From an uncultured Acidobacteriota bacterium (GTDB taxonomy: Bacteria > Acidobacteriota > Thermoanaerobaculia > UBA5066), in contig CAWIUK010000015.1 of the NCBI GenBank assembly GCA_963839295.1, positions 43,347-107,346 on the forward strand: a DNA stretch of 64,000 nucleotides. Direction: 5' to 3'. The notes below the pieces were generated by a model, which ran no database searches, had not been told where the DNA came from, and saw only the letters and a list, made by a program, of their open reading frames with translations. Positions 1,777 through 63,172 of this stretch are shown piece by piece (the first letter of the stretch is position 1; every line of letters begins with the position of its first letter). The translations under genes and the position numbers were made by a program.

Positions 1777-2231
1777 CGGCTGCGCGGATCCTCGTCGTCG
1801 AGGACGGACGCGAGTACGTGGACGGGTTCGCGCGCCTCGCGGCGGCGAAGGGAGTCGAGGCGGCGTTCGTGCGCGCGGGCAGCCTCGCCGAGGCGCGGGA
1901 GGCGCTCCGGGAGGGAAGGCCCGACGCGGTCTTCCTCGACGTCGTCTTCGACCGGACTCCGGAGCCCGATCTCGCGGGGGACCTCGACGCGCTCGTCGCG
2001 CGCACCGGCGGCGACCGCGAGCGCGCCGTCCGGCACCTCGCGACGAACCAGGGCTTCTACGTCCTCGACGCGCTCGCGGACGAGCTCGCGGGCGTCCGCG
2101 TCGTTCTCGCGTACGACTTCACGGGGGAAGAGAAGAGGCTGGCTTCGCTCCAGGAGCGCTTTCCGATGCTCAGCGGCCTGCCGGATGGAGCCTCTCTGGG
2201 CGCCGCGCTGGACGATCTGCTTCGGAAATAG
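1773..2231 (+). CDS. response-regulator receiver (REC) domain protein
   Basis: GTG start at 1773 overlaps the upstream stop (GTGA). Translation is VTAARILVVEDGREYVDGF...AVFLDVVFD, a REC-like fold. It sits inside the artefactual long frame 174..2231. Stop TAG is at 2229-2231. Confidence 0.5.
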   Translation: MTAARILVVEDGREYVDGFARLAAAKGVEAAFVRAGSLAEAREALREGRPDAVFLDVVFDRTPEPDLAGDLDALVARTGGDRERAVRHLATNQGFYVLDALADELAGVRVVLAYDFTGEEKRLASLQERFPMLSGLPDGASLGAALDDLLRK

Positions 2232-2370
2232 AAGACGAAGAGGAAGAGTTCTTAGAAGGTAATTGCAGCCCGGGCGCCGGCGGCCCCCGCGAGTTGCGGC
2301 GCGGCCGATGCCCTCTTAACCTTCTAAGAGAATCTTCTCTTCGGTTCTTCTCTCGGTCTCTCTTCTTTCG
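2231..2370. repeat. inverted-arm repeat unit 1 (forward arm, GC-rich core, reverse arm), intergenic, filling the whole gap between two convergent stop codons
   Basis: Forward arm GAAGACGAAGAGGAAGAGTTCTTAGAAGGTAA at 2231-2262. A GC-rich palindromic core lies at 2263-2311. Reverse arm CCTCTTAACCTTCTAAGAGAATCTTCTCTTCGG... at 2312-2368. The unit starts at the last base of the TAG stop of the receiver gene and ends 1 bp before the stop of the GAPDH-like gene (2372). Confidence 0.75.
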
Positions 2371-2371
2371 C

Positions 2372-3433
2372 CTAGATTTCCGTGAAGACGAAGCGCTTGA
2401 GGACCTGGATGCGCTGGTTCGCGTGCTCGGGGTCCATGAGCCAGATCGCTCCCGCCACGGAGGAGAGCAGCGAGTTGCCGTCCTGCGGCGTGAAGCAGAA
2501 GCCCACGATCTCGCGCCCCTCGTCCGCGACGGCGAGCGTCGGCGTCGAGATGACGGTCTGGGAGAGGATGCGGCCGTAGTAGCCGTGGTCGCGCCCGAAC
2601 GAGAAGACCTCGTTCGCACTCTTGCGCTCCGTCAGCGCGACGAGAGGGTTCGCCTTCAGCCGCTCGAGGACGCGCTTCTTGTCGGTCTTTTCCTTGAGCT
2701 CGAAGTTGAACCAGACCGAGTGCATGTACTGCGTGTTGAGCTTGATCGCCGAGGAGAAGACCTTCGGCTTGAGGTGAAGCGTCTCGTAGAGGTGGTAGAC
2801 GTCGTGCGCGTGGTGCGTGCCGAACTCGTCGTCGTCGTGCTTGCCGACGGTCGGCGCGGGCGAGTAGTCCTTCGTCTGGGAGATGTCGTTCGAGCGCCGC
2901 ATGCACACGAACTGCGCGCGCTCCATCGTGAGCTTCCCGGCGTCGTCCATCCCGAGCGTCTTGATGAGGATCGCGAGGTTGTGCGTGTTGCACGAGACGA
3001 TCTGGAGGAACTTGTCCTCGCCGGGGACGAGCGTCGCGTCGTTGATCCCGCGCGCGTACATCTTCCCGAACCCGAATTCGGAGCCCTGCGCGAGGAACCC
3101 GACGGGGCCCTTGAGGCTCTTGTAGACCTGTTCCTTGTTGTCGTTGCCGGCCGGCGTGCAGTCGAGGACGACGGTCGCGCGCTCGAGGGCCTCCTGCGCC
3201 GTGTACGACACCTTGTGGCCGAGGGCCTCGAAGTCCGCGACCTTGTCCTCGTCCGCCGCGAGGTGCGCCCCGCGCGTCATGAGGTGGTTCACCTTCGCCC
3301 GTTCCGTCTTCATCGGCGTGCGCTTGTGGAACGTGACCTCGTCGATTCCGAGGTGCTGCTTGAAGTCGGTGAACAGCCCGATCAGCGGTTCGCCGATCGT
3401 GCCGGTGCCGACGATGTGGACGATGTTCTTCAT
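2372..3433 (-). CDS. type II (archaeal-type) glyceraldehyde-3-phosphate dehydrogenase-like NAD(P) oxidoreductase
   Basis: MKNIVHIVGTGTIGEPLIG Rossmann N-terminus, VVLDCTPAGNDNKEQ, and an active-site-like IVSCNTHNL (compare archaeal GAPDH VSCNTTGL). Overall architecture matches type II GAPDH. Confidence 0.55.
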   Translation of the reverse strand: MKNIVHIVGTGTIGEPLIGLFTDFKQHLGIDEVTFHKRTPMKTERAKVNHLMTRGAHLAADEDKVADFEALGHKVSYTAQEALERATVVLDCTPAGNDNKEQVYKSLKGPVGFLAQGSEFGFGKMYARGINDATLVPGEDKFLQIVSCNTHNLAILIKTLGMDDAGKLTMERAQFVCMRRSNDISQTKDYSPAPTVGKHDDDEFGTHHAHDVYHLYETLHLKPKVFSSAIKLNTQYMHSVWFNFELKEKTDKKRVLERLKANPLVALTERKSANEVFSFGRDHGYYGRILSQTVISTPTLAVADEGREIVGFCFTPQDGNSLLSSVAGAIWLMDPEHANQRIQVLKRFVFTEI

Positions 3434-3520: not shown

Positions 3521-4183
3521 GTGCTAACGTCGCCGGCCGTGACGCCCGCCGCGGACGCGACGCTCGTTTCCGTGGAGATCCAGGGGCCCGCGGGACCGCT
3601 GGAGGGCATTCTGCGGGCGCCGGCTCTTCCGGCCGGCGCCGCGGTCGTCGCGCACCCCCACCCTCGCCACGGGGGGACGATGCACACGAAGGTCGTCCAC
3701 CGCGCGGCGAAGCTCCTCTCCGAACGGTTCTCCCTCGCGGCGCTGCGGTTCAATTTCCGGGGCGTCGGGGCGTCGGGCGGCTCGTACGACGAGGGCCGCG
3801 GGGAGACCGAGGATCTCGTCGCGGCCGGCGAGTGGATCAGGCGACGCCAGCCGGGAGGGCCGTTCGTCCTCTCGGGCTTCTCGTTCGGCTCGCTCTGCGC
3901 CCTTCGGGCCGCCGCGCGCCTCGTGCCTGACGTCCTTCTCCTGATCGGCCTCCCCGTGGACCGCTGGGACGGCGCGGCCCCCGCAACTCTCGCGGCTCCC
4001 GTCGTCTGGATCCAGGGCGACCGCGACGAATTCAGCCCGCCGGAGAAGTCGCGCGCGATCGCGAAGGCGCGGGGCTGGACGTTTCTCTCCGTTGCCGGCA
4101 CGGACCACTTCTTCGCGGGGAAGCTGGACGAGTTCGAAGCCGCTGCCGGTGACGCGCTCGAGAAGGCTCTCGGGAGCGCGTGA
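3521..4183 (+). CDS. alpha/beta hydrolase fold protein
   Basis: HPHPRHGGTMH...LSGFSFGS nucleophile-elbow-like motif, 220 aa. Its stop overlaps the next start (ATGA). Confidence 0.55.
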   Translation: MLTSPAVTPAADATLVSVEIQGPAGPLEGILRAPALPAGAAVVAHPHPRHGGTMHTKVVHRAAKLLSERFSLAALRFNFRGVGASGGSYDEGRGETEDLVAAGEWIRRRQPGGPFVLSGFSFGSLCALRAAARLVPDVLLLIGLPVDRWDGAAPATLAAPVVWIQGDRDEFSPPEKSRAIAKARGWTFLSVAGTDHFFAGKLDEFEAAAGDALEKALGSA

Positions 4184-4758
4184 TGTTCGAGGAGAACGAA
4201 CGGGATTTGCTTAGAAAGGTCGCGAGGGAGGCGGCGGCCCGTGCGATGGGGCTGCGTCTCGCGCCAGCGGCCGCTCGACCCGCCGCGCAGCCGGCCGCGG
4301 CCTTCGCTCCGCCTGCATCCCCTCTTTCACTCGAAGAAATCTCCGGTCTCTTCGTCACATGGCTGAAGGACGGCCGGCCTCGCGGAAGAAGCGGGACTCT
4401 CGCCCCGGATGCGCCCCTCTTTACACTCGTAGAAACTCTCGCGGTGGACGCGCTCCTGCACGACCCGCGCGTCCCGCCCGCAACCGCGAAGGAGCTCCCG
4501 CGCTACTCGCCCCGCATCTCCGTCCTCTCCGCCTTCGAAGAAATCTCCTCTTCCTCCACCGTCGTCGTCGGCACGCACGGCGTGATCGCGGAAAAGGGGA
4601 AGCGGTGGGGAGTCGTCCTTCCCCAGGACGCGGACGGGCTGGGATGGGACGGCGACCGCCTTGTCGGGCAGGCCTGCCTCAGGGCCGGCCTGCCGGAAGA
4701 GAGCTGGAGGGCCGCCGGGTCGGTCCGACTCCGCCGCTTCACGGCCGAGACCTTCTGA
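4180..4758 (+). CDS. AMMECR1 domain protein; carries repeat arms in-frame
   Basis: AMMECR1-like blocks GLFVTW...RDPRVPP...VGTHGVIAEKGKRWGVVLPQ...LRRFTAETF. Codons 3-16 (EENERDLLRKVARE) are written by a diverged forward arm GAGGAGAACGAACGGGATTTGCTTAGAAAGGTCGCGAGGGAG. Confidence 0.7.
   Translation: MMFEENERDLLRKVAREAAARAMGLRLAPAAARPAAQPAAAFAPPASPLSLEEISGLFVTWLKDGRPRGRSGTLAPDAPLFTLVETLAVDALLHDPRVPPATAKELPRYSPRISVLSAFEEISSSSTVVVGTHGVIAEKGKRWGVVLPQDADGLGWDGDRLVGQACLRAGLPEESWRAAGSVRLRRFTAETF
4189..4352. repeat. inverted-arm repeat unit 2, inside AMMECR1 and in-frame
   Basis: Forward-type arm at 4189-4230. Reverse-type arm CCCTCTTTCACTCGAAGAAATCTCCGGTCTCTTCG at about 4319-4352. Rare codons (TTG, CTT, AGA, AAG, AGG) are used. 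Confidence 0.55.
4521..4558. repeat. solo reverse-type arm inside AMMECR1 (GCCTTCGAAGAAATCTCCTCTTCCTCC)
   Basis: Shares an exact 20-mer CCTTCGAAGAAATCTCCTCT with the reverse arm at 42551-42570. Encodes SAFEEISSSS in frame. Confidence 0.6.
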
Positions 4759-4761
4759 CGC

Positions 4762-4784
4762 GGGCGGCCCGACGGACCGTCCGG
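4762..4784. terminator. GC-rich hairpin between convergent genes, a possible bidirectional terminator
   Basis: GGCCCGACGG-A-CCGTCCGGCC, an imperfect 9-10 bp stem, between the AMMECR1 stop (4758) and the FKBP stop (4786). There is no clear T-run. Confidence 0.25.
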
Positions 4785-4785
4785 C

Positions 4786-5529
4786 CTACTTCTTCGCCTC
4801 GGGGGGCTTCGGCGCGTCCTTCTCGATCGAGAGGAGCTGGACGTCGAACACGAGCGTCGCGCCGCCCTTGATGCGCGGTGGGCGGCCCTCGTCGCCGTAG
4901 GCGAGGTCGGACGGGCACACGAGACGGGCCGATCCGCCCACCTTCATGAGCTGCACGCCCTGCGTCCAGCAGGGGATGACGCCGTTCAGGGGGAAGGTGA
5001 CGGGCTCGTTGCGGTCGATCGAGCTGTCGAAGACGGTTCCGTCGATCAGCGTGCCCCGATAGTGGACCTTGACCTTGTCGGTCGCCTTCGGCGTCGCGCC
5101 CGTGCCGGCCTTCGTCTCCTTGTAGAGGAAGCCCGAGGGCTGCTTCTTCGTGCCGGGCTGCGCGGCCTCCTTCTCGAGGAACGCGGCGCCGGCCTTCTTC
5201 TCGGCGGACGCCTGCGCCGCCATGCGGCTCTTGGCGAGGTCGTTCAGTTTCGGGCCGTACGTCTCGAGGTCGACCTTGGGCGTCTTCCCGAGGACGCCGT
5301 CCGAGAGCCCCTGCTCGACGACGGCGAGCTCGGCGGCCGAGAGCTTGAAGCCCGTCAGGTTGCGCGAAATCACGAGACCGAGCGCGTAGAGTGTCTTGTC
5401 TGCTTCGCTGGCGGGCGCGCCGGCGACGGCCCTGGCGGGCGCCTTCGGGGCCGCGGGCTTGGTGTCCTGGGCGGCGGCCGGGAGCGCCAGGGACAGGGTG
5501 AGACCGGAGGCGATGAGGAATCGCCGCAT
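4786..5529 (-). CDS. fkpA: FKBP-type peptidyl-prolyl cis-trans isomerase (FkpA-like, secreted)
   Basis: Signal peptide MRRFLIASGLTLSLALPAAAQ, an N-terminal dimerisation helix, and a C-terminal FKBP domain (KVKVHYRGTLIDGTVFDSS...GVIPCWTQGVQLMKVGGSARLVCPSDLAYG). Confidence 0.75.
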   Translation of the reverse strand: MRRFLIASGLTLSLALPAAAQDTKPAAPKAPARAVAGAPASEADKTLYALGLVISRNLTGFKLSAAELAVVEQGLSDGVLGKTPKVDLETYGPKLNDLAKSRMAAQASAEKKAGAAFLEKEAAQPGTKKQPSGFLYKETKAGTGATPKATDKVKVHYRGTLIDGTVFDSSIDRNEPVTFPLNGVIPCWTQGVQLMKVGGSARLVCPSDLAYGDEGRPPRIKGGATLVFDVQLLSIEKDAPKPPEAKK

Positions 5530-5593
5530 GTGTGTGTCCTCGCTTTCTGGTGTGGGCGGCCGGCAGGGCGGCCGATCCGGGATGGTAACCCCG

Positions 5594-6412
5594 TCAGGCC
5601 CGGCTGAGAACGAAAAGGAGGAGCCCCGCCGCCACGGCCGCGTTCAGCGATTCCACGCTCCCGCCGAGCGGGAGCGTGAGCCGCCGGTCGAGCGCGGCCT
5701 CGATCCCGGGCGAGATCCCGTGTCCCTCGGAGCCGACGACGAGGACGAGCGGGCGGACCTTCGCGGCCCGGTCGGGCGGCTCTCCGCCGTGGGCTTCGGC
5801 GCCGGCGAGGATGGCGCCGAAGGAGCGCGCCCACGCGATCGCCTCGGGCTGCGCGACGCGGGCCGCGATCGGCACGCGCAGGGCGCTCCCCGCCGACGCG
5901 CGCAGCGCACGGGGCGAGTACGGAAAGGCGCAGCCGGGCGTCGCGACGACGCCGGCGACGCCAAACGCCTCGGCGCAGCGGACGATCGCGCCGACGTTCG
6001 CGGGGTCCTGGATTCCGTCGAGGAGAAGAAAGAGAGAGGACGAAGAAGGGGATTTCTTCGAAGGTGAAGAGAGGGAAGACAGCGTTCGGTGCGGGGGCGG
6101 AGCGAGAGCCGCGATGCCGCGCGTCGACGGGAGATTGGAAAGCCTCTTCAGGACGCGGGGCGAAACCGTCGTTACGCGAGGGGGCGGCGTCGCTCCGCCG
6201 CCTCCCGGCGCTCCTTCCCCTCTTACCCTTCTAAGAAAATCCGCGTTCTCTTCGGACTTCTCATCGATGACGAACATTTCTTCCAGAGGCACGCCCGCGT
6301 CGAGGGCTTCTTCCACCATCCGTCTGCCCTCGAGGAGCATGCGGTCGCCGGCGGCGACCGCGCGGGCGGCCGCGACGATACGCGGGTTGGAGGGGGAGTC
6401 GATCCGGGACAT
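5594..6412 (-). CDS. TrmH/SpoU-family RNA 2'-O-methyltransferase carrying an in-frame repeat unit
   Basis: SpoU blocks LFLLLDGIQDPANVGAIVRCAEAFGV, LVLVVGSEGHGIS, LPLGGSVESLNAAVAAGLLLF. A roughly 65-aa low-complexity segment (SEENADFLRRVRGEG...SSPSKKSPSSSS) is encoded by repeat unit 3. Confidence 0.7.
   Translation of the reverse strand: MSRIDSPSNPRIVAAARAVAAGDRMLLEGRRMVEEALDAGVPLEEMFVIDEKSEENADFLRRVRGEGAPGGGGATPPPRVTTVSPRVLKRLSNLPSTRGIAALAPPPHRTLSSLSSPSKKSPSSSSLFLLLDGIQDPANVGAIVRCAEAFGVAGVVATPGCAFPYSPRALRASAGSALRVPIAARVAQPEAIAWARSFGAILAGAEAHGGEPPDRAAKVRPLVLVVGSEGHGISPGIEAALDRRLTLPLGGSVESLNAAVAAGLLLFVLSRA
6021..6262. repeat. inverted-arm repeat unit 3, inside the trmH-like CDS and in-frame
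   Basis: Forward arm GAGGAGAAGAAAGAGAGAGGACGAAGAAGGGGATTTCTTCGAAGGTGAAGAGAGGGAAGAC at 6021-6080. Core of about 135 bp. Reverse arm CCTCTTACCCTTCTAAGAAAATCCGCGTTCTCTTCGGACTTCTC at 6217-6262. Confidence 0.8.
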
Positions 6413-6455
6413 GCGGGCGGAAGTCTAGCCCGCGCCGTGCTGTAATCCGGCCCCG

Positions 6456-7640
6456 ATGAAACAAGGACTCCCCGAAGCCGGGGCGGCGATCGTCGCGAAA
6501 GCGTCTCCGCTCGCCGCGCTCTGGACTTTCCCGGCCGTCCTCTTCTCGGCGTTCCTCGTCGCGTGGGGCGCCGAGGCCGCGCAGTTCCTCGTCTCGCAGG
6601 GGCTGGCGCTCGCGATCCTCGCGTGGCTCCAGACGCTGCCCGAATTCGCGGTCGAGGCGGTCATCGCGTGGGAAGCGGGGAAGGACCCGGCGAAGGTCCA
6701 CCTCGCGATCGCGAACTTCACCGGCTCGATCCGGCTCCTCGTCGGCCTCGGCTGGCCGCTCGTCTACTTCGTCGCGGCGTTCTTCGCGCGCCGGACGGGG
6801 ACTCGCAAGACCTGGATCGCGATCGAGTTCGACGACGAGCACGCGCTCGAGGTCATGGGCCTCCTGCCGCCGCTCGCGTGGTTCACCGTGATCTGGTGGA
6901 AGGGGACGCTCGGCCTCTGGGACGCGCTGATCCTCTCGCTCTGCTACTTCGCGTACCTCTTCGCGCTCCTGCGCCTCCCGCCGCGCGAGGGAGACGTCGA
7001 GGAGATGGAGGACCTGCCCGCCGTCTCGAAGTGGGCGCTCCGCCAGGGCCCGGGGCGGCGCGGGTGGGCGATCACGGGGATCTTCGTCGTCGGCGGTCTC
7101 GTGCTCCTCGTGTCCGCGCACGCGTTCGTGGAGTCCATGCTCGCGCTCGCGATCGCGGCGGGCGTCGCGCCGTTCGTGTTCGTCCAGTGGGTCGCGCCGT
7201 TCCTGTCCGAGTTCCCGGAGAAGTTGTCGGCGTTCAACTGGGCGCGCCAGATCACGAAGGCGCCGATGGCGGTCATGAACCTCGTCTCGTCCACGATCAA
7301 CCAGTGGTCGATCCTGTCGGCCCTGATCCCGGTCATCTACTCGTTCTCGAGGGGGACGCCGTCGGCGATCGTCTTCGACGAGCACCAGCGCCTCGAGATC
7401 CTGCTCACGATCCTCCAGAGCTTCCTGGGCTGGCTCCTCCTCGTGAACCTCGACCTGAGGGCCTTCGAGGCGGGCATCCTGTTCGTGTTCTGGCTCGTGC
7501 AGTTCGCCATCCCGTCGACGCGCGAGGTCATGGCCGGCGTCTACGCCTCGTGGTGCGCCGTCGAGATCCTCATGATCGCGACCGGCCGGCGGAAGCCCCG
7601 CGCCGTCGCCGCCCTCTGGAGGGTCCTCAAGAGATCATGA
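6456..7640 (+). CDS. Ca2+:cation antiporter (CaCA/YrbG-like) family membrane protein
   Basis: Polytopic membrane protein with two alpha-repeat signatures (LQTLPEFAVEAV and VAPFLSEFPEKLS). Its stop overlaps the next start (ATGA). Confidence 0.55.
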   Translation: MKQGLPEAGAAIVAKASPLAALWTFPAVLFSAFLVAWGAEAAQFLVSQGLALAILAWLQTLPEFAVEAVIAWEAGKDPAKVHLAIANFTGSIRLLVGLGWPLVYFVAAFFARRTGTRKTWIAIEFDDEHALEVMGLLPPLAWFTVIWWKGTLGLWDALILSLCYFAYLFALLRLPPREGDVEEMEDLPAVSKWALRQGPGRRGWAITGIFVVGGLVLLVSAHAFVESMLALAIAAGVAPFVFVQWVAPFLSEFPEKLSAFNWARQITKAPMAVMNLVSSTINQWSILSALIPVIYSFSRGTPSAIVFDEHQRLEILLTILQSFLGWLLLVNLDLRAFEAGILFVFWLVQFAIPSTREVMAGVYASWCAVEILMIATGRRKPRAVAALWRVLKRS

Positions 7641-13848: not shown

Positions 13849-13849
13849 G

Positions 13850-13896
13850 CCCTCTTCACCTTCCAAGAAAATCTTCTTCCGTTCCGTTCTTCGTCT
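13850..13896. repeat. solo arm filling the whole 48-bp gap between the livF stop and the acyl-CoA synthetase start; it supplies a Shine-Dalgarno-like GGAAGGTGAAGAG 4-7 nt upstream of the ATG
   Basis: CCCTCTTCACCTTCCAAGAAAATCTTCTTCCGTTCCGTTCTTCGTCTC. On the minus strand this reads ...GATTTTCTTGGAAGGTGAAGAGGGC-ATG. Confidence 0.75.
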
Positions 13897-20164: not shown

Positions 20165-20189
20165 GGTGGTCTCCTGCAGCTCGGAAGTG

Positions 20190-20799: not shown

Positions 20800-20811
20800 G
20801 CAGTGATTATA

Positions 20812-21393: not shown

Positions 21394-21397
21394 GTTT

Positions 21398-44233: not shown

Positions 44234-44242
44234 GAGGCATCC

Positions 44243-51699: not shown

Positions 51700-53316
51700 A
51701 TGAGCACAGCGGCACCCGCGGAATCCGGGAAAAGGGTTATCTCCTCAGCCGAGGAACGGCGCGTCATCGTCGCGTCGTCGGTCGGCACCGTCTTCGAGTG
51801 GTACGACTTCTACCTCTACGCGACCCTCGCCCCGTTCTTCGCGACCCTCTTCTTCCCGAAGGGGAACGCGACGGCGGCCCTCCTCTCCGCCTTCGTCACC
51901 TACGCGGCGGGCTTCCTCGTCCGTCCGTTCGGCGCCCTGATCTTCGGCCGCGTCGGCGACCTCGTCGGACGGAAGTACACGTTCCTCGTGACGATCGCCG
52001 TCATGGGCGGCGCGACCGCAGCCGTCGGCTTCCTTCCGACGTTCGCCCAGGTCGGATGGTTCGCGCCCGCGATTCTCGTCCTCCTGCGCCTCCTGCAGGG
52101 CCTCGCCCTCGGCGGCGAATACGGCGGCGCCGCGACGTACGTCGCCGAGCACGCCCCGGACCACCGCCGCGGCTACGCGACGAGCTGGATCCAGACGACG
52201 GCCACCGTCGGCTTCTTCATGGCCCTCATCGTCATCTACGTCAGCCGCGCGTCGATCTCCGCGGCCGACTTCGCGTCGTGGGGATGGCGCATCCCGTTCA
52301 TCCTCTCTCTCGTTCTTCTCGCGATCTCCATCTACATCCGTCTCAAGCTGCAGGAGTCGCCGATCTTCCAGCGCCTGAAGGCGCAGGGGAAGCGCTCGAA
52401 GTCGCCCATCAAGGACAGCTTCTTCAAGTACCCGAACAACAAGTACGCGTTCCTCGCGCTGTTCGGCGCGACGGCGGGCCAAGGCGTCGTCTGGTACACG
52501 GGCCAGTTCTACGCCCTCTTCTTCCTGACGATCACGCTCAAGATGGACTGGCAGACGGCGTATACGCTCATCGCGCTGTCCCTGCTTCTCGGGACGGGGT
52601 TCTTCATCGTGTTCGGCGCCCTCTCGGACAAGATCGGACGCCTGAAGATCATCCTTTTCGGCTGCGCGATCGCGGCCGTCACGTATATCCCGCTCTTCAA
52701 GGGCCTCACCCACTACGCGAACCCGTCCCTCGAGAAGTACCAGGACGCGACGCCCGTTTCGATCGCGGGGACGAACTGCGAGATGCACATCTTCGTGACG
52801 CCGTTCACGAAGTTCTCGGCGTGCGACAAGGCCCAGGACTTCATGTCGAAGCAGGGGCTGTCCTTCACGACTCTCCCGCCGCAGGGAGACGACGTCGTGA
52901 TCAAGGTCGGCAGCGTCGAGATCAAGGGCTACGACGAGGCGAAGCTCAAGGAGGCCATGAAGACGACGGGCTACCCGAGCCCGGCGTTCAAGAAGGACGA
53001 GATGAACTTCGGGATGGTTCTCCTCATCCTCTTCATCATGGTCATCTACGTCACGATGGTTTACGGGCCGATCGCGGCGTTCCTCGTCGAGCTGTTCCCG
53101 GCGAACATCCGGTACACGTCGATGTCGCTGCCCTACCACATCGGCAACGGGTGGTTCGGCGGCATGCTCCCGCTGATCGCGACGGCCTGGGTCGCCGCGT
53201 CCGGCAACATCTACCAGGGCCTCTGGTACCCGATCATCGTCTCCGTCATCACGGTCGTCGTCGGCGGCCTGTTCCTGCGCGAGACGAAGGACGTCAAGAT
53301 CCACGAAGAGGTCTGA
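51700..53316 (+). CDS. MFS transporter, metabolite:H+ symporter (MHS, ProP/KgtP-like) with a long inserted hydrophilic loop
   Basis: VGTVFEWYDFYLY...GRVGDLVGRK MHS signature. An extra roughly 90-aa soluble segment lies between TM8 and TM9. Confidence 0.8.
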   Translation: MSTAAPAESGKRVISSAEERRVIVASSVGTVFEWYDFYLYATLAPFFATLFFPKGNATAALLSAFVTYAAGFLVRPFGALIFGRVGDLVGRKYTFLVTIAVMGGATAAVGFLPTFAQVGWFAPAILVLLRLLQGLALGGEYGGAATYVAEHAPDHRRGYATSWIQTTATVGFFMALIVIYVSRASISAADFASWGWRIPFILSLVLLAISIYIRLKLQESPIFQRLKAQGKRSKSPIKDSFFKYPNNKYAFLALFGATAGQGVVWYTGQFYALFFLTITLKMDWQTAYTLIALSLLLGTGFFIVFGALSDKIGRLKIILFGCAIAAVTYIPLFKGLTHYANPSLEKYQDATPVSIAGTNCEMHIFVTPFTKFSACDKAQDFMSKQGLSFTTLPPQGDDVVIKVGSVEIKGYDEAKLKEAMKTTGYPSPAFKKDEMNFGMVLLILFIMVIYVTMVYGPIAAFLVELFPANIRYTSMSLPYHIGNGWFGGMLPLIATAWVAASGNIYQGLWYPIIVSVITVVVGGLFLRETKDVKIHEEV

Positions 53317-53350
53317 AGAAGACGAAGAGAAGAGTTCCTTAGAAGGTGGT
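53316..53350. repeat. solo forward arm starting on the last base of the transporter stop codon
   Basis: (TG)AAGAAGACGAAGAGAAGAGTTCCTTAGAAGGTGGT, followed directly by a terminator hairpin. Confidence 0.7.
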
Positions 53351-53392
53351 ACGGGCCGGGCGGGTCTTTCCGCCCGGCCTTTTCTTTTGCGC
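53351..53392 (+). terminator. rho-independent terminator
   Basis: GGGCCGGGCGGG-TCTTTC-CGCCCGGCC followed by TTTTCTTTTG. Confidence 0.7.
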
Positions 53393-55077: not shown

Positions 55078-56604
55078 ATGGCTCCGTCCATTCCCGTCCA
55101 CGGCAACTGGATTGCCGGCAAGCACGTTCCCGCCCGATCGGGCCGCACCTTCGAAAACCGCAACCCCGCCGACGTGACCGACCTCATCGGCCGTTTCGCC
55201 GAATCGGACGAGCGCGACGTCCGAGACGCCGTGGATGCCGCGTCGGCGGCGTACGAGAGCTGGCGCCTCGTCCCTGGCCCCCAGCGCGGCGAGATCCTCT
55301 ACCGGCTCGGCGAAATCCTGCGCGACCGCAAGGAACAGTACGCGCGCGACATGACGCGCGAGATGGGCAAGGTCCTGAAGGAGGCCCGCGGCGACGTGCA
55401 GGAGGCCATCGACATGGCCTTCCTCATGGGCGGCGAGGGCCGCCGCCTGCACGGCCAGACGACGCCCTCCGAGCTCCCAAACAAGTTCGCGATGTCCGTG
55501 CGCGCGCCGATCGGCGTCTGCGCCTTCATCACGCCCTGGAACTTCCCGATGGCGATCCCGGCGTGGAAGTCCACGGCCGCGCTCGTGTGCGGGAACACGG
55601 TCGTCATCAAGCCCGCGACGGACACGCCGCTCTCGGTCGTGAACTTCGCGAAGGCGCTCGAGGACGCGGGCCTCCCGCCCGGCGTCTTCAACGTCGTCAC
55701 GGGCTCCGGCTCGAAGGTGGGGAACCCGCTCCTCAAGGACCCGCGCGTGAAGGTCGTCTCGTTCACCGGATCGACGTCGGTCGGACGGGCGATCAACGAG
55801 GCCTGCGCGCCGTCGTTCAAGCACGTGCACCTCGAGATGGGCGGGAAGAACCCGATCATCGTGATGGACGACGCGAACCTCGAGCTCGCGGTCGACGGCG
55901 CGATCTGGGGCGCGTTCGGGACGAGCGGCCAGCGCTGCACGGCTTCGTCGCGCCTCCTCGTCCACCGCAAGGTCGTCAAGAAGTTCACCGCGATGCTCGC
56001 CGAGCGCGCGGCGGCGCTCAAGGTCGGCAGCGGGCTCGACGAGAAGAACGAGATGGGGCCGGCGATCAACGAGAGCCAGCTCGACACCGTCCTCGACTAC
56101 ATCTCGATCGGCAAGGACGAGGGCGCGAAAATCGTCGCGGGCGGCAGGCGCCTCACGGGCAAGGGCCACGACAGGGGCTGGTTCGTCGCGCCCACCGTCT
56201 TCGGGGACGGCGACCGGCGGATGCGAATCGCGCGCGAGGAGATCTTCGGCGCGGTCACGGTCGTCGTGCCGATCTCGTCCCTCGAGGAGGCGATCGACAT
56301 CTCCAACGAATCGGAGTACGGGCTTTCCTCGGCCATCTTCACGCAGGACATCAACAAGGCGTTCACGGCGATGCGCGACCTCGAGGCCGGCATCTTCTAC
56401 GTGAACCTCCCGACGATCGGCGCCGAGACGCACCTGCCGTTCGGCGGAACGAAGCAGACCGGCAACGGGCATCGCGAGGCGGGGCTCGCCGCGCTGGACG
56501 TCTTCAGCGAGTGGAAGTCGATCTACGTCGATTACTCCGGGACGATCCAGAAGGCCCAGATCGACGTGCCCGCCGGCGAGGCCGCCGCGAAGAAGAAGAG
56601 ATAG
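55078..56604 (+). CDS. NAD(P)-dependent aldehyde dehydrogenase
   Basis: LEMGGKNP (catalytic Glu), [15 protein letters not shown] (catalytic Cys), EEIFGAV. 508 aa. Confidence 0.85.
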
Positions 56605-56606
56605 CC

Positions 56607-56676
56607 GCAGAGAAGAACCGGGGATTTCTTGGAAGGTGAAGAGACCGGCGCGGTTCCTCGTGAGGCCCGCGCCGGC
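56607..56676. repeat. solo forward arm plus GC hairpin filling the gap between the aldehyde-dehydrogenase stop and the convergent aminotransferase stop
   Basis: AGAGAAGAACCGGGGATTTCTTGGAAGGTGAAGAG at about 56609-56643, then ACCGGCGCGG-TTCCTCGTGAGGC-CCGCGCCGGC. Confidence 0.7.
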
Positions 56677-57908
56677 TAGGCGAGGCCGCGCGCCTTTCGG
56701 TAAGCCGGAAGCGCCGCGGCCAGGATGTCGATCGCCGCCCTCAGATCCTCTTCCTTGAGGACGTAGGCGATCCGCACCTCGTCCTTGCCGAGGCCCGGCG
56801 TCACGTAGAAGCCGCTCGCCGGCGCCACCATGACGGTCTTGCCGTCCTTCTGGAAGTCCGTGAGCAGCCACGCGGCGAAGTCGTCGCTGTCCGTGATCGG
56901 GAGGCGCGCGACGAGGTAGAACGCGCCCTCGGGCTTCCTCAGGAAGACCCCCGGGATGCCCGACAGGCCCGCGAAGAGCGTGTCCCGCCGCTTCTGGTAC
57001 TCCGTCACCACGCCGCGGTAGTAGTCGGGGCCGAGGGCCGCGGCCGCGGGCGCGATGAACTGCGCGAGGCCGGGAGGGGAGAGACGCCCCTGCGCCATCC
57101 GGTTCGTCGCGGCCGCGAGCTCCTCGTTGCGGGTGACGAGGGCGCCGAGGCGGATCCCGCAGGCCGAGAACCTCTTCGACAGCGAGTCGACGACCACGAC
57201 CTCGTGCTCGAAGCCGGCGAGGGAGAGCGCGCTCTCGGACACGCGGCCGTCGTAGAGGAACTCGCGGTAGACCTCGTCGCACACGAAGAAGAGTCCGTGG
57301 TCGCGGCAGAACTCCGCGACGAGGCGGATCTCGTCCTTCGTGTAGACCGTCCCGGTCGGGTTGTTCGGGTTGCAGAGGAGGACGACGCGGGTCTTCGGGG
57401 TCAGGGCCTTCTCCCACTCGACCCGGCCGGGCAGGTGGAAGCCGTCGCCTCCGTGCGTCACGATGGGCTTGAGCGTGAGCCCCGCCATCGCCGCGAAGGA
57501 GCGGTAGTTCGTGTAGAGAGGCTCGACGGTCAGGATCTCGCCGCCCGGGTCCGAGCAGGCCATGAACGCGAAGAGCAGCGCCTCGCTGCCTCCGGTCGTC
57601 GCGAGGATCTGCCCAGGCTCCAGCGCGACGCCCATCCGCGCGTAGTACGTCCGGAGGAACTCGAGGTACTCCGGCGTGCCGTTCGACGGCGAGTACGCGT
57701 AGACCTTGTCCTTGAGCTCGAGGAGCCGGCGCCGCATCGGTTCGGGCGTCTCGAGGTCGGGCTGTCCGATGTTCAGGTGCAGGACGTTCACGCCGCGGGC
57801 TCTCGCGTCGTTCGCCAGCGGCATCAGCTTGCGGATGGGGGAGGCGGGCATTGCGAGGCCGCGTTCGGAGACTTGGGCGGCCGTCCGGATCGTGCTCATG
57901 CGCGTCAC
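56676..57908 (-). CDS. class I/II pyridoxal-phosphate-dependent aminotransferase
   Basis: NPNNPTG and the SLSKRFSACGIRLGA PLP-lysine region. 410 aa. Confidence 0.8.
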   Translation of the reverse strand: MTRMSTIRTAAQVSERGLAMPASPIRKLMPLANDARARGVNVLHLNIGQPDLETPEPMRRRLLELKDKVYAYSPSNGTPEYLEFLRTYYARMGVALEPGQILATTGGSEALLFAFMACSDPGGEILTVEPLYTNYRSFAAMAGLTLKPIVTHGGDGFHLPGRVEWEKALTPKTRVVLLCNPNNPTGTVYTKDEIRLVAEFCRDHGLFFVCDEVYREFLYDGRVSESALSLAGFEHEVVVVDSLSKRFSACGIRLGALVTRNEELAAATNRMAQGRLSPPGLAQFIAPAAAALGPDYYRGVVTEYQKRRDTLFAGLSGIPGVFLRKPEGAFYLVARLPITDSDDFAAWLLTDFQKDGKTVMVAPASGFYVTPGLGKDEVRIAYVLKEEDLRAAIDILAAALPAYRKARGLA

Positions 57909-58912
57909 ATTAGCAAACGCGCGGGGTCGCCGAGTCCGGCGGCCGCGAGCAGGCCGGCCATGTCAGACGGGACCGGCGCCGTGAACGTCATCGGCTCGCC
58001 CGAGAGAGGGTGCCGGATCCCGAGCCGCCACGCGTGCAGGGCCTGACGCGGGAACGACTTGCACGCCTCCTGCAGCGCCTCGTCCTTCAGGCCCTTCCAG
58101 CGCGGCGAGCCGTAGACCGGGTCGCCGACGATGGGCAGGTTCAGGGCCTTGAGGTGCACGCGGATCTGGTGCGTGCGGCCCGTGACAAGCTTGCATTTCA
58201 AAAGGCTTAGGCCCGCAAGATCGCCGGAAGACTCGGAAAGAATTTCATAGAAGGTGGTCGAGGGCCGCCCCTCGGTCTTCGAGACGGCCATGCGCTTGCG
58301 GTCCTTGGGGTCGCGCAGGATGCCGATTTCTATCTTTCCCTTGCGGACAGGCGGGTGCCCGTAGACGACCGCCAGATATTCCTTCTCTAAGAATCTCTCT
58401 TTCATCGCCCGCCCAAGCACCGACATCGCACGCTCGGTCTTCGCGATGATGAGCACCCCGGACGTGTCCTTGTCGAGCCGGTGGACGAGGCCAGGGCGGT
58501 CCGCGGGGCCGGCCCAGTCCTTCGAGCGGTGGAGGAGCGCGTTCACGAGCGTCCCGTCCCAATGGCCGACGGCGGGGTGGACGACGAGCCCCGGCGGCTT
58601 GTCGAGGACGAGAATTTCGGAGTCTTCGAAGATGATCGAGAGGGGGATGTCCTGGGCGGCGAGGGAAGCTCGAGGCGGGGGAGGAGGCGGGAGGACGATT
58701 TCGATGACGTCTCCTTTCTTCACCTTCTCAGAGACTTTCTTCGGTCTCCTTCCCCCGATCGAAACCCATCCCCCTTCGATCCACTCCTGGATCTTCGTGC
58801 GGGAGGCCTCCGGCAGGTCCGTCAGGTGCCGCAGGAGGACATGGTCGAGACGCTCGCCGACGTCGCCCCGGTCGGCGCGGATCGCGCGGGCCGGCCGCGG
58901 CGCGTCGCTCAC
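57905..58912 (-). CDS. rluD: 23S rRNA pseudouridine synthase RluD (RluA family, with S4 domain)
   Basis: GTG start at 58910-58912. S4 domain (KVKKGDVIEIV), HRLDKDTSGVL, GRTHQIRVH. It is the C-terminal 335 aa of the artefactually extended ORF 57905..59488. Confidence 0.8.
   Translation of the reverse strand: MSDAPRPARAIRADRGDVGERLDHVLLRHLTDLPEASRTKIQEWIEGGWVSIGGRRPKKVSEKVKKGDVIEIVLPPPPPPRASLAAQDIPLSIIFEDSEILVLDKPPGLVVHPAVGHWDGTLVNALLHRSKDWAGPADRPGLVHRLDKDTSGVLIIAKTERAMSVLGRAMKERFLEKEYLAVVYGHPPVRKGKIEIGILRDPKDRKRMAVSKTEGRPSTTFYEILSESSGDLAGLSLLKCKLVTGRTHQIRVHLKALNLPIVGDPVYGSPRWKGLKDEALQEACKSFPRQALHAWRLGIRHPLSGEPMTFTAPVPSDMAGLLAAAGLGDPARLLM
58226..58405. repeat. arm-like pair inside rluD (weaker, and superimposed on conserved residues)
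   Basis: GGAAGACTCGGAAAGAATTTCATAGAAGGTGGTCGAG at 58226-58262 and ATTCCTTCTCTAAGAATCTCTCTTTCAT at 58378-58405. They encode the conserved TTFYEILSESS and KERFLEKEYL using TAT, GAA, ATT, CTT, TTA and AGA codons. Confidence 0.45.
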
Positions 58913-59695: not shown

Positions 59696-60196
59696 TCAGC
59701 TCCTCGCCGGCTTTCGGGCCGGCTCGGGCTCCGGTCGGCGCCAGATGTCCCACGCGAGGAGGACGACGCCCACGGAGATCGCGCTGTCGGCGACGTTGAA
59801 GGACGGCCACTCCCAGCGGTCGACGTAGAAGCGCAGGAAGTCCGTGACCGCCGAGAAGCGCACGCGGTCGATGAGGTTCCCGACCGCGCCGCCCATGATG
59901 AGGCCGAGCGCGGTCTGAAGGAGCCGGTGGTCCGGCGCCGTCTTCAGCGACCAGACGAGGACGGCCGCGAACACGGCGACGGCGAGGAGCGTGACGAGGA
60001 GCGGCCGGGCCGAGCCCGCCGCCGCGAAGGCTCCGAAAGCGGCGCCGGTGTTCCGGAGGTGCGTGAGGTCGAAGAAGCCCCGGATCACGGGAATCGTCCG
60101 GTAGAGCGGGATCTTCGCGATGACGACCGCCTTCGTGGCCTGGTCGAGAACGACGACGCCCAGCGCGAGGGCGAGATAGGGGAGGCGCCGCGTCAC
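59696..60196 (-). CDS. lspA: lipoprotein signal peptidase II
   Basis: NTGAAFG and FNVADSAISVGVVLL blocks. 166 aa. Confidence 0.85.
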   Translation of the reverse strand: MTRRLPYLALALGVVVLDQATKAVVIAKIPLYRTIPVIRGFFDLTHLRNTGAAFGAFAAAGSARPLLVTLLAVAVFAAVLVWSLKTAPDHRLLQTALGLIMGGAVGNLIDRVRFSAVTDFLRFYVDRWEWPSFNVADSAISVGVVLLAWDIWRRPEPEPARKPARS

Positions 60197-60205
60197 CGTG
60201 GGATT

Positions 60206-63172
60206 CTAACCGCCGACGACCGCACGGCAGCGGGCGCAGAGCCCGTCTTCGCCCGGCTCGACGTCCTTGCGCACCTGCCAGCACCGAGGGCACTTGGCGC
60301 CCACGGCGGGGCGGGCGAGGACGCCTTCGACGCCCGAATCCCGCACGACGGACGCCACTGCCAGGACCTCGGCGAGTTTTTCTTCTGAAAGGGAAAGAAG
60401 GGCGAGCGCTTCGTCGAGCCCGGCGCCGCGCCCGACGACGGCCTCGGCCTGCGCCGCGGACCCGACCTTGTTCTCGCGACGCAGCGGCTCGAGGGATTGC
60501 AGGAACTCCGCCCGGAGCGCGAGGACTCGTCCCCACGCCTCTCTTTCATTCGCGGAAATCTCCCGAGTCTTGAGGTCGCTCCAGCTCTTCAGGAAGAGCG
60601 CGGCCGGATCCGCCGCGTTCCCCGGCAGCGACTCGAAGATCTCCTCTGCCGTGAACGGGCAGATCGGAGAGAGGGCGACCGCGATCGTCTCCACGAGCTT
60701 CCAGGCGGCCGTCTGGGCCGAGCGGCGGACGGGGTCGCCCGGCGCGAGGACGTAGAAGGCGTCCTTGCGGACGTCGCACCAGAACGCGGAGAGGTCGGTC
60801 GTGACGAGGTCGAGGAGGCGGCGCGCCACCGCGTGGAACTCGTAGCGTCCGTAGGCGTCGCGCGCCTCGGCCGCGAAACGCGCCGCGGCGTCGAGGACCC
60901 AGCGCTCGAGCGGCTCGAGCTTCGCGTCCGGCACCGCGTCCTTCGCGGGCTCGAAGTCGAAGAGGTTCGAGAGGAGGAAGCGGGCCGTGTTCCGGATCTT
61001 GCGGTACGCCTCGGCCGTCCGCTGGAGGATCTCCTTCGAGAGCGGGTCGTCGTTCGTGTAGTCGAGCGACGCAACCCAGAGGCGGATGACGTCGGCACCC
61101 TCCGTCTTCAGGAGGTCCTGCGGCTCGATCGTGTTCCCGAGCGACTTCGACATCTTCCGGCCGTCGCCCGCGACGACGAACCCGTGAGTCAGCACGACGT
61201 CGTACGGGGCGCGGTCCGTGAGCGCGACCGAGGTCAGGAGCGACGACTGGAACCAGCCGCGGTGCTGGTCGTGGCCCTCGAGGTACATCACGGGCACCGG
61301 CGGCTGCGCCGTGTACGGGTCCGCGAGGCCGTAGTCGCCCGAGCGCAGGACCGCCGCATGCGACACGCCGGAGTCGAACCAGACGTCGAGGATGTCCTTC
61401 AGCTTCTCGAAGTTCGTCCCGCCGCAGAGGGAACACGAGGCCGAAGAGGAAGACGAAGAGGGAGAAGAAGATCTTCCTAGAAAGTAAGAGGGAGGGAAAG
61501 CGTCGTCGTACCAGGCGTTCGCTCCGTGCTCGCGGAACGCCTCTCTTACCCTTTCAAAGAAATCCTCTCTTTCTTTCTTTTCGTTCTCTCCGACGTTGCC
61601 CTCGACTCTTGGGAAATGGCTGACGATCCCCCTCTCTTTGCAGTCCACGCAGCGAAGAAACGTGATCGGCGAGCCCCAGCGGCGCTGCCGGGAGATGGTC
61701 CATTCGAGGCGGTTGTCCACCATCGCGCCGATGCGGTTCTCGCTGTACGACGGGATCCACTCCACGCGGCCGCGGATCTCGGCCATCGCGCGGTCGCGGA
61801 GGGCCCCGAGGTCGATGAACCACTGGTGCGTCGCCCGGAAGATGACCGGGTTCTTGCAGCGCCAGCAGTGGGGGTAGGAGTGGGGCGAAGATTTCTGCGA
61901 GAGGAGGACGGAGGTTCCGGCGCGTCCGTCCCGCAGGGCCTCGAGGACCGCGAGGTTCGCGTCCTCGGCTTCGCTTCGCGGCGAAACGACCCTTTTTCCT
62001 CGAAGGAATTCCGGGGCATTCACGTCGTAGGAGCCGCCCTCGTCCACCGGGCAGAGCGCCGGATCGTCGACCTTGAACCCCGCGCGCCGGACGACCTCGT
62101 AGTCGTCGCGGCCATGCCCGGGCGCGGTGTGGACGAGGCCGGTGCCGTCCGTCGTCGAGACGTGGTCGCCGAGGAGGAAGCCGAAATTGTCGTAGGGATC
62201 GGACGCGAAGGGGCGGGCGTAGCGCAAGGCCGGCAAGGCCCCGGCGATCGCCTCGCCGCTTTTCTTGGAATGGGGAAGAGGGTGTGCGTCGCGCCAGCCG
62301 AGCGCGGCCGTCACCTGCGGGACGAGCGATTCGGCGACGAGGTAGGCGGCGCCCGGCTCTGATTCCCTTCTCAGAAGAACGTATTCGATCTTCGGGCCCA
62401 GCGCGATGGCACGGTTCGCAGGCAGGGTCCACGGGGTTGTCGTCCAGATGACGGCGTAGAGTTGCCGCACGTCGCTCGACTGAGTGAGAGCGCCCCACAC
62501 ACCCTTCAAAGAATCTTCTCTTAGGGGCATCGCCACGTAGATCGACCAGTCCGTCTTGTCCTCGTACTCGATCTCCGCTTCGGCGAGCGCCGTGCGGTCG
62601 TGGACGCACCAGAGGACGGCCTTGAAGCCGAAGGAGACGAGGCCCTTCTCGACGAACCGCCCGAACGCCCGCGCGATCTCGGACTGGTACGAGAAATCCA
62701 TCGTCCGGTACGGCGCCTTCCAGGCGCCGAGGACGCCGAGGCGCATGAAGTCGGTGCGCTGGACGTCGATCCACTTCTCGGCCGAGGCACGGCAGGCGTC
62801 GCGGATCGCGACGTCCGACATCCCGCGCTTCTTCGGGCCGAGCTCCTTGTCGACCTTGAGCTCGATCGGAAGGCCGTGGCAGTCCCAGCCGGGCACGTAC
62901 GGCGCGTCGAAGCCGGCGAGCGTCCTGGAACGGACGACGAGATCCTTCAGGATCTTGTTCATCGCCGTCCCCATGTGGATACGCCCGTTCGCGTACGGCG
63001 GACCGTCGTGGAGGAGGAATCCGGGGGCGCCCTGCCGTGCGGCGCGGATGCGGCCGTAGAGATCGCCCTCCTGCCAACGCGCGAGGCGCGCGGGCTCCCG
63101 TCTCGGGAGGTCCGCCTTCATGGGGAACCCCGTCTTCGGGAGGAGGAGCGTGGATTTCCAGTCGCGGCCCAT
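60206..63172 (-). CDS. ileS: isoleucine--tRNA ligase (type 1, C-terminal Zn finger) carrying in-frame repeat arms
   Basis: [12 protein letters not shown] (HIGH region), KMSKS, C-terminal CPRCW...CARC. 988 aa. Confidence 0.9.
61443..61600. repeat. inverted-arm repeat unit 7, inside ileS and in-frame
   Basis: Forward arm GAAGAGGAAGACGAAGAGGGAGAAGAAGATCTTCCTAGAAAGTAAGAGGGAGGGAAAG at 61443-61500. Reverse arm CTCTCTTACCCTTTCAAAGAAATCCTCTCTTTCTTTCTTTTCGTTCTCTCC at 61543-61600. The arms encode [17 protein letters not shown] and [15 protein letters not shown]. Confidence 0.8.
62258..62525. repeat. inverted-arm repeat unit 8 inside ileS (about 240-bp spacing), with a further arm-like segment at about 62361-62385
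   Basis: CTTTTCTTGGAATGGGGAAGAGGGTG at 62258-62283 and CACCCTTCAAAGAATCTTCTCTTAGGGG at 62499-62526. Confidence 0.5.

Follow-up and report, generated by a model that had tools for sequence, protein, structure and literature searches.

An interspersed family of convergent repeat arms inside and between the genes of a high-GC Acidobacteriota clade

How can one short sequence come to stand again and again both between genes and, in-frame, inside the housekeeping genes of a high-GC bacterium? The question is raised by a 64 kb stretch of DNA (~70% G+C; hereafter the window) from an uncultured member of the Acidobacteriota. Its proteins are nearest to those of metagenome-assembled genomes (MAGs) labelled Thermoanaerobaculia or Acidobacteriota, and the nearest species-level relative by IleS (locus L001) is just 61% identical. 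The original prediction, made from the sequence of the window, had noticed repeat arms in inverted pairs around unrelated DNA. We found that these arms belong to an interspersed repeat family without earlier description, which is restricted to one clade of high-GC, Thermoanaerobaculia-like Acidobacteriota from soil and sediment. The family is not a cargo-carrying or cut-and-paste element. Sequence comparisons indicate that the genic arms mostly arise in place, by same-length recoding at sites that were already motif-like, together with short insertions and (TCT)n expansions. The explanation that we prefer, tentatively and at slightly less than even probability, is that of a recognition motif which accumulated in place like DNA uptake sequences and whose paired form is a terminator-like hairpin.

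A directional motif confined to one clade

Within the window the motif was far commoner than expected by chance. With at most one mismatch, TTCTTNGAAGG matched 21 times where 1.85 matches were expected, and none of 100 shuffles reached 21; GAAGGTGAAGAG matched 7 times against 0.21 expected. A profile of 48 positions, built from 17 of 21 aligned candidate arms and applied at a threshold of at least 13 bits, found 17 arms in the window, about one per 3.8 kb, whereas the reversed window had none. In public metagenomes, a scan with TTTCYTNGAAGGTGAAGAGGG yielded at least 120 loci comprising 704 kb with a mean G+C content of 69%; the family-wide counts given below were made among the matches listed. 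These loci held 168 arms of at least 13 bits and none when they were reversed, and exact 21-mers recurred at at least 120 loci in independent metagenomes.

Nothing scored above 11.3 bits in 80 loci (~1.1 Mb) that surround IleS in other taxa, high-GC Acidobacteria included. The 21-nt core had no copy in 2.9 million viral contigs; a 17-nt version gave 15 matches there, all of them single and on low-GC contigs, which by a rough estimate is about chance level. The motif was also absent from the island resembling an integron cassette array that lies inside the window and is described below. Rfam, searched at gathering thresholds with the window and 144 kb of arm-bearing loci, returned no family at any arm. 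Full-text searches of the literature for repeats of Thermoanaerobaculia, in-frame palindromic elements, uptake sequences of Acidobacteria and the exact motif found no relevant description.

It might be argued that the arms are chance likenesses among Glu/Lys/Ser-rich or low-complexity coding stretches. The weakest arms (RluD, IleS and the left arm in AMMECR1) do encode conserved native residues, and some of the arms first listed are conserved coding stretches with a weak likeness to the motif. For the strong copies this explanation is refuted by the shuffles, by the reversed sequences and by the 1.1 Mb of relatives without matches at threshold. Copies also occur in non-coding DNA, on both strands and in five reading frames, and the exact 21-mers come from independent metagenomes. 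The motif is far commoner than Glu/Lys/Ser-rich coding would give and is missing from related taxa, as ordinary conserved coding would not be; the original prediction had named the opposite outcomes as its refutation. Chance likeness is essentially excluded, and we assign it a minute probability.

When the arms of the metagenome loci were aligned on their inner end, they showed a core of 23 nt, GATTTCTTNGAAGGTGAAGAGGG, which is AT-rich and directional. Its 3' edge is sharp, all signal being lost abruptly just past GAGGG. The 5' flank is 78% purine and fades over 20–30 nt. This flank is microsatellite-like: depending on the genome, a single orthologous site has AGACGAAGAACGGAACGGAAGAAGA, AGAAGAAGAAGAAGAGGAAGAGGAAAAGAGAAGA or GAGATTTCGGATTTCGGA as its flank, with the core constant. 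Many pairs have one arm cut short at ...GAAGGTGAAT. The distal GAAGA(C/G)GAAGAG that had been proposed as part of the consensus corresponds to this variable purine-rich flank and is no constant module, and GTCCGAAGAG, tried as a separate module, was not enriched alone (3 matches against 1.5 expected). GC-rich blocks of ~25–40 nt that may form hairpins were seen within some arms, for example CTTCGGAC-(38 nt)-GTCCGAAG in the flank of the SpoU reverse arm of L081, L082 and L083, and a hairpin between CGGAAGAG and the core at L103 520-600. Arms seem to be hotspots for such additions.

Convergent pairs around native DNA

A partner was defined as a reverse-complement core with at most 6 mismatches in 19 positions and within 400 nt. 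Among 90 strong arms with sufficient flank, 49 had a partner downstream of the sharp end and 3 had one upstream of it (Fisher p = 3e-15); 22 of 29 close neighbour pairs among the matches listed from the metagenome loci were in +/- order. The forward-then-reverse arrangement of the arms was thus borne out. Partners were 7–371 nt apart with a broad mode at 45–135, in place of the predicted preference for ~105 bp. Overall, 52% of the genic arms were paired.

Units (two arms with the DNA between them, the interior) were predicted to fold as long stems, with z scores of -3.86, -3.86 and -5.32. Because the order of the arms is convergent, a U/C-rich tract lies 3' of the stem on both strands. A long purine/pyrimidine stem with this tract behind it is therefore predicted to be possible in a transcript or single strand of either strand. 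The first 45 nt past the sharp end were somewhat GC-richer and had folding energies of -17.0 against -14.2 kcal/mol in controls. The interiors are not palindromic themselves: their mean fold z of -0.4 ruled out a foldback palindrome. Pair-specific covariation was not seen, the identity within pairs being 18.0/30 and that between units 18.8/30.

Between the arms lies ordinary local DNA, which in genes is native coding sequence. It is unrelated between units, as had been proposed. The IleS interior encodes a conserved native segment, that of the MBL-fold hydrolase can be aligned residue by residue with human NAPE-PLD, and that of the SpoU methylase makes up the latter half of the substrate-binding domain. 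Since the interiors are native, the units are not insertions carrying cargo. The interiors also bear on the idea of intragenic and intergenic invertons, in which an invertase would flip the bracketed segment. Inverted repeats of 20–45 nt around segments of 7–370 nt, some of them intragenic, would suit such a system, but not one of 29 unit-to-orthologue comparisons revealed an inverted interior, and the conserved native protein segments are encoded in one orientation. The same repeat, moreover, recurs about once per 4 kb in housekeeping genes, and many of its copies are solo. We therefore regard invertons as essentially excluded and their probability as very small.

Genes around the arms were called with a codon-model caller trained on the window. 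The arm-bearing genes of the window are real genes by Pfam or PDB matches (SpoU methylase, AMP-binding enzyme, MBL hydrolase, RluD, IleS and LigD), and in all six of them the open reading frame (ORF) runs unbroken through the arms. The arms are thus both intergenic and in-frame inside housekeeping genes, as first described. Among 166 non-redundant arms, 66 stood at non-coding or edge positions (40%, against 13% non-coding DNA; p = 1e-17) and 100 in ORFs (46 sense, 54 antisense). Genic solo arms showed no strand preference (18 antisense, 14 sense). Arms are read in five of the six frames, the remaining one always having a TGA in it. The peptides that they encode are DFLEGEEG (33), ISxKVKR (12), PSSPSKK (34), LFTFKE (16) and HLLRK (4), and the arms are distributed along whole genes without clustering at the termini.

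Where an intergenic arm has a co-oriented gene upstream, it starts in half of the cases no more than 45 nt past the stop codon of that gene. All five intergenic arms of the window begin at or just past a stop codon, and two of the five run into a GC hairpin, one of which is the sole strong canonical terminator in the 20 kb scanned. The arm at 13849–13880 places AAGGTGA 8 nt before an ATG in four genomes. A general role of arms as ribosome-binding sites was rejected, as such use is seen in the orthologues of the AMP-binding gene and in just one or two further cases (~3/157).

A possible explanation for these positions could lie in a device at the RNA level. The purine arm, with its strong Shine-Dalgarno-like AAGGUGA, would pair in cis with a pyrimidine arm resembling an anti-Shine-Dalgarno or Rho-loading sequence. 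Such a device could protect mRNA 3' ends, provide RNase III sites or terminate untranslated (antisense or uncoupled) transcripts, and its common sequence would be kept by one RNA-binding protein or small RNA reader. The predicted stems are strong and have the U/C-rich tract on their 3' side on both strands, but covariation between partners is lacking and no Rfam family matches. Arms lie just past stops and before terminators, although intrinsic terminators need no common sequence. In four genomes one arm provides the AMP-binding gene with its ribosome-binding site, a use which is exceptional in the family. AT-rich codons are retained in the arms (see below), but genic solo arms are equally frequent on both strands relative to transcription. 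All in all we consider an RNA-level device, which is partly compatible with accumulation in place or with a mobile element, improbable.

The members found in the window are collected in Table 1. The original prediction was right in that a family far above chance exists here; about one third of the members it listed were weak or unsupported. Instead of at least 12 paired units there are five robust pairs (2229-2352, 6034-6254, 13354-13510, 42416-42582 and 45754-45893) and two weak ones, in RluD (14.6/4.7 bits) and in IleS (61452-61579; 9.0/13.7 bits). Of the solo arms, those at 4528-4557, 13849-13880, 53320-53356 and 56608-56644 are robust. At most 8 bits, or no score at all, were obtained for the solo arm at 41868, for the left arm of the unit 4189-4352, for the whole of 62258-62376 and for the two candidates near 19618 and 26785. 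A 20-mer is indeed exact in two distant copies, its coordinates being 4532 and 42553 and not 4527 and 42551.

Table 1. Arms of the repeat family in the window (positions in the window; scores from the arm profile)
Feature	Position	Strand	Bits	Remarks
Forward arm, intergenic unit	2229-2267	+	17.3	Begins on TAG stop of gene 1773-2231(+); pairs with 2310-2352, RNA fold z -3.86
Reverse arm, intergenic unit	2310-2352	-	24.8	Adjoins stop of convergent gene 2372-3433(-); orthologous arm L082 21529-21570
Solo arm, AMMECR1 gene (4180-4758 +)	4528-4557	-	15.8	Encodes AFEEISSSS; exact 20-mer shared with 42553; orthologue L221 19493-19522 stronger (19.8 bits)
Arm, SpoU/TrmH-like methyltransferase gene (5594-6412 -)	6034-6073	+	25.2	Antisense; encodes LSSPSKKSPSSSS; Pfam SpoU_methylase; conserved L081-L084
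Partner arm, SpoU gene	6218-6254	-	17.5	Sense; encodes SEENADFLRRVRG; core invariant in 5 orthologues; unit z -5.3
Arm, AMP-binding (malonyl-CoA-synthetase-like) gene (12271-13848 -)	13354-13395	+	18.4	Antisense; encodes PSSPSRKNLSSDP
Weaker partner arm, AMP-binding gene	13468-13510	-	16.7	Native VLREILGR helix in rare codons (codon alignment)
Solo arm, junction of ABC-ATPase stop (13897) and AMP-binding ATG (13848)	13849-13880	-	22.2	Supplies Shine-Dalgarno-like AAGGTGA
Arm, MBL-fold (NAPE-PLD-like) hydrolase gene (41987-42949 -)	42416-42454	+	17.6	Antisense; encodes TLLRNPSSSSSIS
Partner arm, MBL hydrolase gene	42543-42582	-	20.2	Sense; encodes ARSVEEISSKVRG; gapless against human NAPE-PLD
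Arm, inter-domain linker of LigD (44865-46595 -)	45754-45795	+	19.4	Orthologous solo arm in L087 and L223; Pfam LigD_N 36-142, Prim-Pol 304-556
Partner arm, LigD linker	45850-45893	-	19.9	Unit z -3.86
Solo arm directly past TGA stop of gene 51700-53316	53320-53356	+	19.7	Followed by canonical intrinsic terminator 53353-53380; orthologue in L186
Solo arm directly past TAG stop of gene 55078-56604	56608-56644	+	21.4	Followed by GC hairpin adjoining stop of convergent gene 56676-57908(-)
Weak arm, RluD (57905-58912 -)	58222-58261	+	14.6	Gapless recoding; encodes PSTTFYEILSESS; protein colinear with E. coli RluD
Borderline arm, RluD S4 domain	58717-58750	-	12.5	Gapless 13-codon recoding (RRPKKVSEKVKKG)
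Very weak partner, IleS (60206-63172 -)	61452-61485	+	9.0	Native FP..FLPEG recoded, with added (TCT)n poly-Ser expansion
Weak arm, IleS	61543-61579	-	13.7	Gapless recoding of native EERRRFFEKVV
Weak solo arm, IleS	62493-62536	-	14.0	

A further weak reverse arm was observed in a gene starting near 44243 (window 44233-44330), where it is encoded in a signal-peptide-like N-terminus (RILTLKG / ILTFKGILLL). It is present in all four genomes (the window, L087, L093 and L103), and a matching upstream forward arm is found in L093 and L103 only.

Conservation and origin of the arms

Syntenic relatives, ranked by the identity of their AMP-binding protein, were L081 and L082 (86%), L083 (79%) and L084 (73%). 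Their arms stand where those of the window do, and no turnover of arms was seen across the four syntenic genomes. The arm at the operon junction (13849–13880) is conserved in L081, L083 and L084. In a 71% relative (L221) the SpoU and AMMECR1 arms are present, and a 64% relative (L220) has no arms. In general, arms stand at orthologous positions down to ~70% protein identity and are absent at ~61–64%; the peptide PSSPSKKxxSS of the AMP-binding gene likewise occurs in orthologues to ~70% identity and is absent below ~65%. The arms are therefore old and have been inherited vertically within the clade. Codons ending in A or T make up 49% of the codons in arms against 8.6% elsewhere, and of those in arms 58% end in A or T in every orthologue, against 14% (p = 1e-4). 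This retention points to constraint at the nucleotide level or to continuing homogenisation.

Smaller differences between close relatives were observed in the SpoU gene. The ~98% identical strains represented by L081 (17436-18330) and L082 (17436-18290) differ by a 37-bp indel and dense substitutions directly past the forward arm, and the gene of L081 was called as two fragments. In some SpoU and AMP-binding orthologues the reverse arm or its peptide is tandemly duplicated (SPSKK...SPSKK; L084 15900-15971, proteins P0042 and P0044).

Several genic arms can be traced to native codons. In RluD, stretches of 13 codons have been recoded without gaps relative to the arm-less L001 and L002, by amino-acid replacements and by synonymous changes (TAC to TAT, GAG to GAA, CTC to CTT). 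The native ...EERRRFFEKVV... of IleS became GAAAAGAAAGAAAGAGAGGATTTCTTTGAAAGGGTAAGAGAG at the same length. Arm-less relatives already read TTCTTCGAGAAGGTG here, so this position was a ready-made proto-site. For the MBL partner arm (42543–42582), homologues form a graded series: LPGKER, FPSKER, FSSKER, ISSKER, ISSKVR, ISLKVKR. L222 and L223, the ISSKER/FSSKER genomes, read GAG AAA ATT TCT TCG AAG GAA AGG, a same-length partial arm without a partner, and carry arms elsewhere in the genome. The other MBL arm (42416–42454) has 5 inserted and ~8 overwritten codons compared with sister lineages. Relative to orthologues, RluD and the first arms of IleS and MBL are thus gapless, and insertions of 5 to 16 or more codons are found in the second MBL arm, the AMP-binding linker and LigD. 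An AlphaFold model of the MBL hydrolase shows arm 1 (42543–42582) as a helix of good confidence and arm 2 as a strand-turn, so that both are integrated into the fold; disorder of the encoded peptides was ruled out for this protein.

Because of the gapless recoding and the graded intermediates, classical transposition cannot account for the arms. A non-autonomous mobile element related in its habits to the Rickettsia palindromic elements (RPE), to REPINs or to transposable elements of the miniature, inverted-repeat type (MITEs) has nevertheless to be considered. Its arms or compact palindromes would have been copied by a transposase, would have survived in-frame in tolerant loops and would now be old and positionally fixed. 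True insertions exist, as do presence/absence differences at orthologous loci, but no target-site duplication was visible at the inspected junctions. Compact palindromes with interiors of 5–20 nt occur in L116, L155, L158 and L203, pairs dominate and the edge is sharp. The sharp ends, however, face inward, unlike outward terminal inverted repeats, the spacing is not fixed, and the interiors are native, unrelated between units and not hairpins. That all open frames are used is expected of insertion at the DNA level filtered by selection, but RluD, IleS and the first MBL arm were recoded without any insertion. Restriction to a clade with long vertical persistence is known of REPINs as well (10.1101/2021.07.10.451892); the four syntenic genomes, on the other hand, gave no sign of turnover, and in the inspected loci there was no transposase between or beside the arms. 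On balance a mobile element, the chief alternative, seems to us possible and somewhat unlikely.

A candidate for an autonomous element, lying between divergent (-/+) arms in L097, turned out to be merely two adjacent paralogues of a Zn-dependent dehydrogenase (4033-7277). Both paralogues have an arm, in corresponding variable loops, and the two arms are oppositely oriented (EEFSLKVKR and PPVFTFKGILSS).

A putative genome-wide signal and known systems

In the explanation that we favour, accumulation in place, the core would be a genome-wide recognition signal. Substitutions at positions that tolerate them would have brought it into the chromosome, by drive or by selection, in the manner of DNA uptake sequences. 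Genic arms would settle in whichever frame remains open, and occasional templated copying would give rise to insertions. The paired form would be a bidirectional terminator-like or 3'-end hairpin right behind stop codons. The putative reader of the core might be an uptake receptor, a DNA- or RNA-binding protein, or an RNA.

Uptake sequences lie at poorly conserved residues, form intergenic dyad pairs that act as terminators, and are missing from foreign genes (PMC2817400). The arms resemble these sequences (DUS/USS) in being an oriented, clade-specific motif on both strands, at about one per 1–4 kb, with copies at conserved orthologous positions (PMC2817400). Coding copies lie at poorly conserved residues without change of length, although insertional arm copies exist too. 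The intergenic dyads look terminator-like, as judged from the unit 2229-2352 between convergent genes and from arms beside terminator hairpins. The encoded peptides are enriched in the proteome, and the motif is missing from foreign DNA. The differences are the core (23 nt against 9–12), the presence of half of the genic arms in convergent pairs no more than 370 nt apart, and the templated insertions of 15–120 nt. By this comparison the arms share most testable features of uptake sequences and differ in core length, pairing and insertions.

Several observations weigh against such accumulation in place. An uptake-type drive would predict neither the high proportion of paired genic arms nor their strict convergent order, and the core is much longer than known uptake cores. 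Partner arms resemble each other no more than arms from different units do, so pairing of the stem is not visibly selected. Synonymous third positions at conserved residues show no extra conservation in the arms (0.50 against 0.52; n = 14 codons); of the two codon tests, retention of AT-ending codons was the informative one. No reader protein was found. In addition, several arms came as insertions. The arm at the operon junction is an insertion of 45–60 nt: in L221 the genes overlap (ATGA), and L220 has an arm-less spacer of 17 nt. A block of 68 nt with an arm and a terminator hairpin is present in L093 and L103 and missing from the window and L087. The interior and second arm of the LigD unit (117 nt, 39 codons) are missing from the L087 orthologue. 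L101 has a block of 155 nt made up of an interior and a second arm, and L112 and L139 have one of 69 nt that is missing from L180. The MBL and AMP-binding genes contain 5–16 extra Ser-rich codons. Given insertions of 45–150 nt and the strict convergent pairing, a purely point-mutational drive cannot account for the arms.

We also consider it possible, though on the unlikely side, that the arms are the footprint of a new genome-wide signal system of the uptake or self-marking type with a paired 23-nt signal, or of a new copying mechanism. In the copying variant, short templated patches ending exactly at ...GAAGAGGG would overwrite partly similar DNA, native codons included, and the donor might be a linear RNA or single-stranded DNA.

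Among described families none matches, and the original prediction had known of none in a high-GC bacterium. RPE, which Ogata et al. reportedly described in 2000, are said to be palindromic repeats that stand in-frame in essential genes and also in intergenic DNA. Each RPE is one element of 100–150 bp, conserved over its full length, which adds 30–50 residues. The arms, too, are found in-frame within protein-coding genes, where they stand as additional or changed stretches of peptide. In contrast to RPE, only the arms are common to the units, no signal extends past the inner edge and the interior belongs to the host. The proposed insertion of whole units into genes in the manner of RPE was not supported in that form, since the interior is native and several genic arms are same-length recodings that add no residues. 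HIP1 of cyanobacteria (Elhai 2015) reportedly pervades coding and non-coding DNA and evolves in place and not by transposition. The arms are likewise pervasive in both kinds of DNA, but HIP1 is a true palindrome of 8 nt tied to a methyltransferase site, whereas the 23-nt arm core is non-palindromic and occurs in spaced pairs.

REP, BIME and REPIN sequences are similar to the arms in that they are short inverted doublets which fold as hairpins and are often found at gene 3' ends (PMC3116915). REPINs also share vertical inheritance and persistence in one lineage (10.1101/2021.07.10.451892). REPINs, however, are extragenic, whereas 60% of the arms are in ORFs. Inverted REP doublets stand at a fixed 71 or 110 bp in SBW25 (PMC3116915), which differs from the variable distances of arm partners. 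The spacer of a REPIN is a hairpin with compensatory changes, unlike the native arm interiors without covariation. REPINs accompany a RAYT gene; none was noticed in the loci inspected. MITEs such as Correia, ERIC and Nezha are also small, non-coding and high-copy, with inverted repeat ends and hairpin transcripts (PMC10969869). They have outward sharp ends, target-site duplications and a conserved interior, whereas the sharp ends of the arms face inward, duplications were not visible and the interior is unconserved. CRISPR repeats are regularly spaced direct repeats; the arms are inverted, dispersed over 60 kb and irregularly spaced. The original prediction had already set the arms apart from CRISPR, from classical REP/BIME and from MITEs with a conserved interior. 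The arms also lack the R'' (RYYYAAC) and R' (GTTRRRY) cores of attC sites.

Other repeats occur in the same region. An arm-free island of lower G+C content (62–65%) at 20150–22500 of the window contains small minus-strand ORFs, among them two DUF1801, one UPF0158 and several without a Pfam match. Between these ORFs lie repeats of ~88 nt (20188-20275, 21396-21483 and 21976-22063), the ends of which, GCCGCCTAAC...GTTAGGCGGC, are attC R''/R' core sites. The island looks like an integron cassette array with no integrase in view. In L083 (300-1700) an IS110-family transposase gene adjoins copies of the same attC-like repeat (CTAACGATA..TTCAGCGGCGAG); it was rejected as a partner of the arms because it sits beside that repeat and not beside arms. 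Finally, 14089–15338 and 32850–34175 of the window are diverged direct repeats (61–78% identity) that join two gene pairs for ATPases of branched-chain-type ABC transporters, which is ordinary paralogy unrelated to the arms.

For practical purposes the motif is a sharp taxonomic marker for binning MAGs of the clade. Arms that split or extend ORFs, as in the SpoU gene of L081, can mislead gene callers, terminator predictors and repeat annotators. If the arms did accumulate in place, hundreds of essential genes in a widespread lineage of soils and sediments would have acquired a 23-nt signal, which would have locally reshaped their codon usage (49% AT-ending codons against ~9%) and seeded the recurrent peptides DFLEGEEG, ISxKVKR, PSSPSKK and LFTFKE. 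Molecular drive of the uptake type, known from only two proteobacterial families, would then extend to another phylum and to a paired architecture; an uptake-type arm would be the first such sequence outside Pasteurellaceae and Neisseriaceae. Alternatively, the arms may reveal a new copying mechanism. With a new signal system or copying mechanism behind it, the repeat would spread through essential genes by neither transposition nor classical gene conversion.

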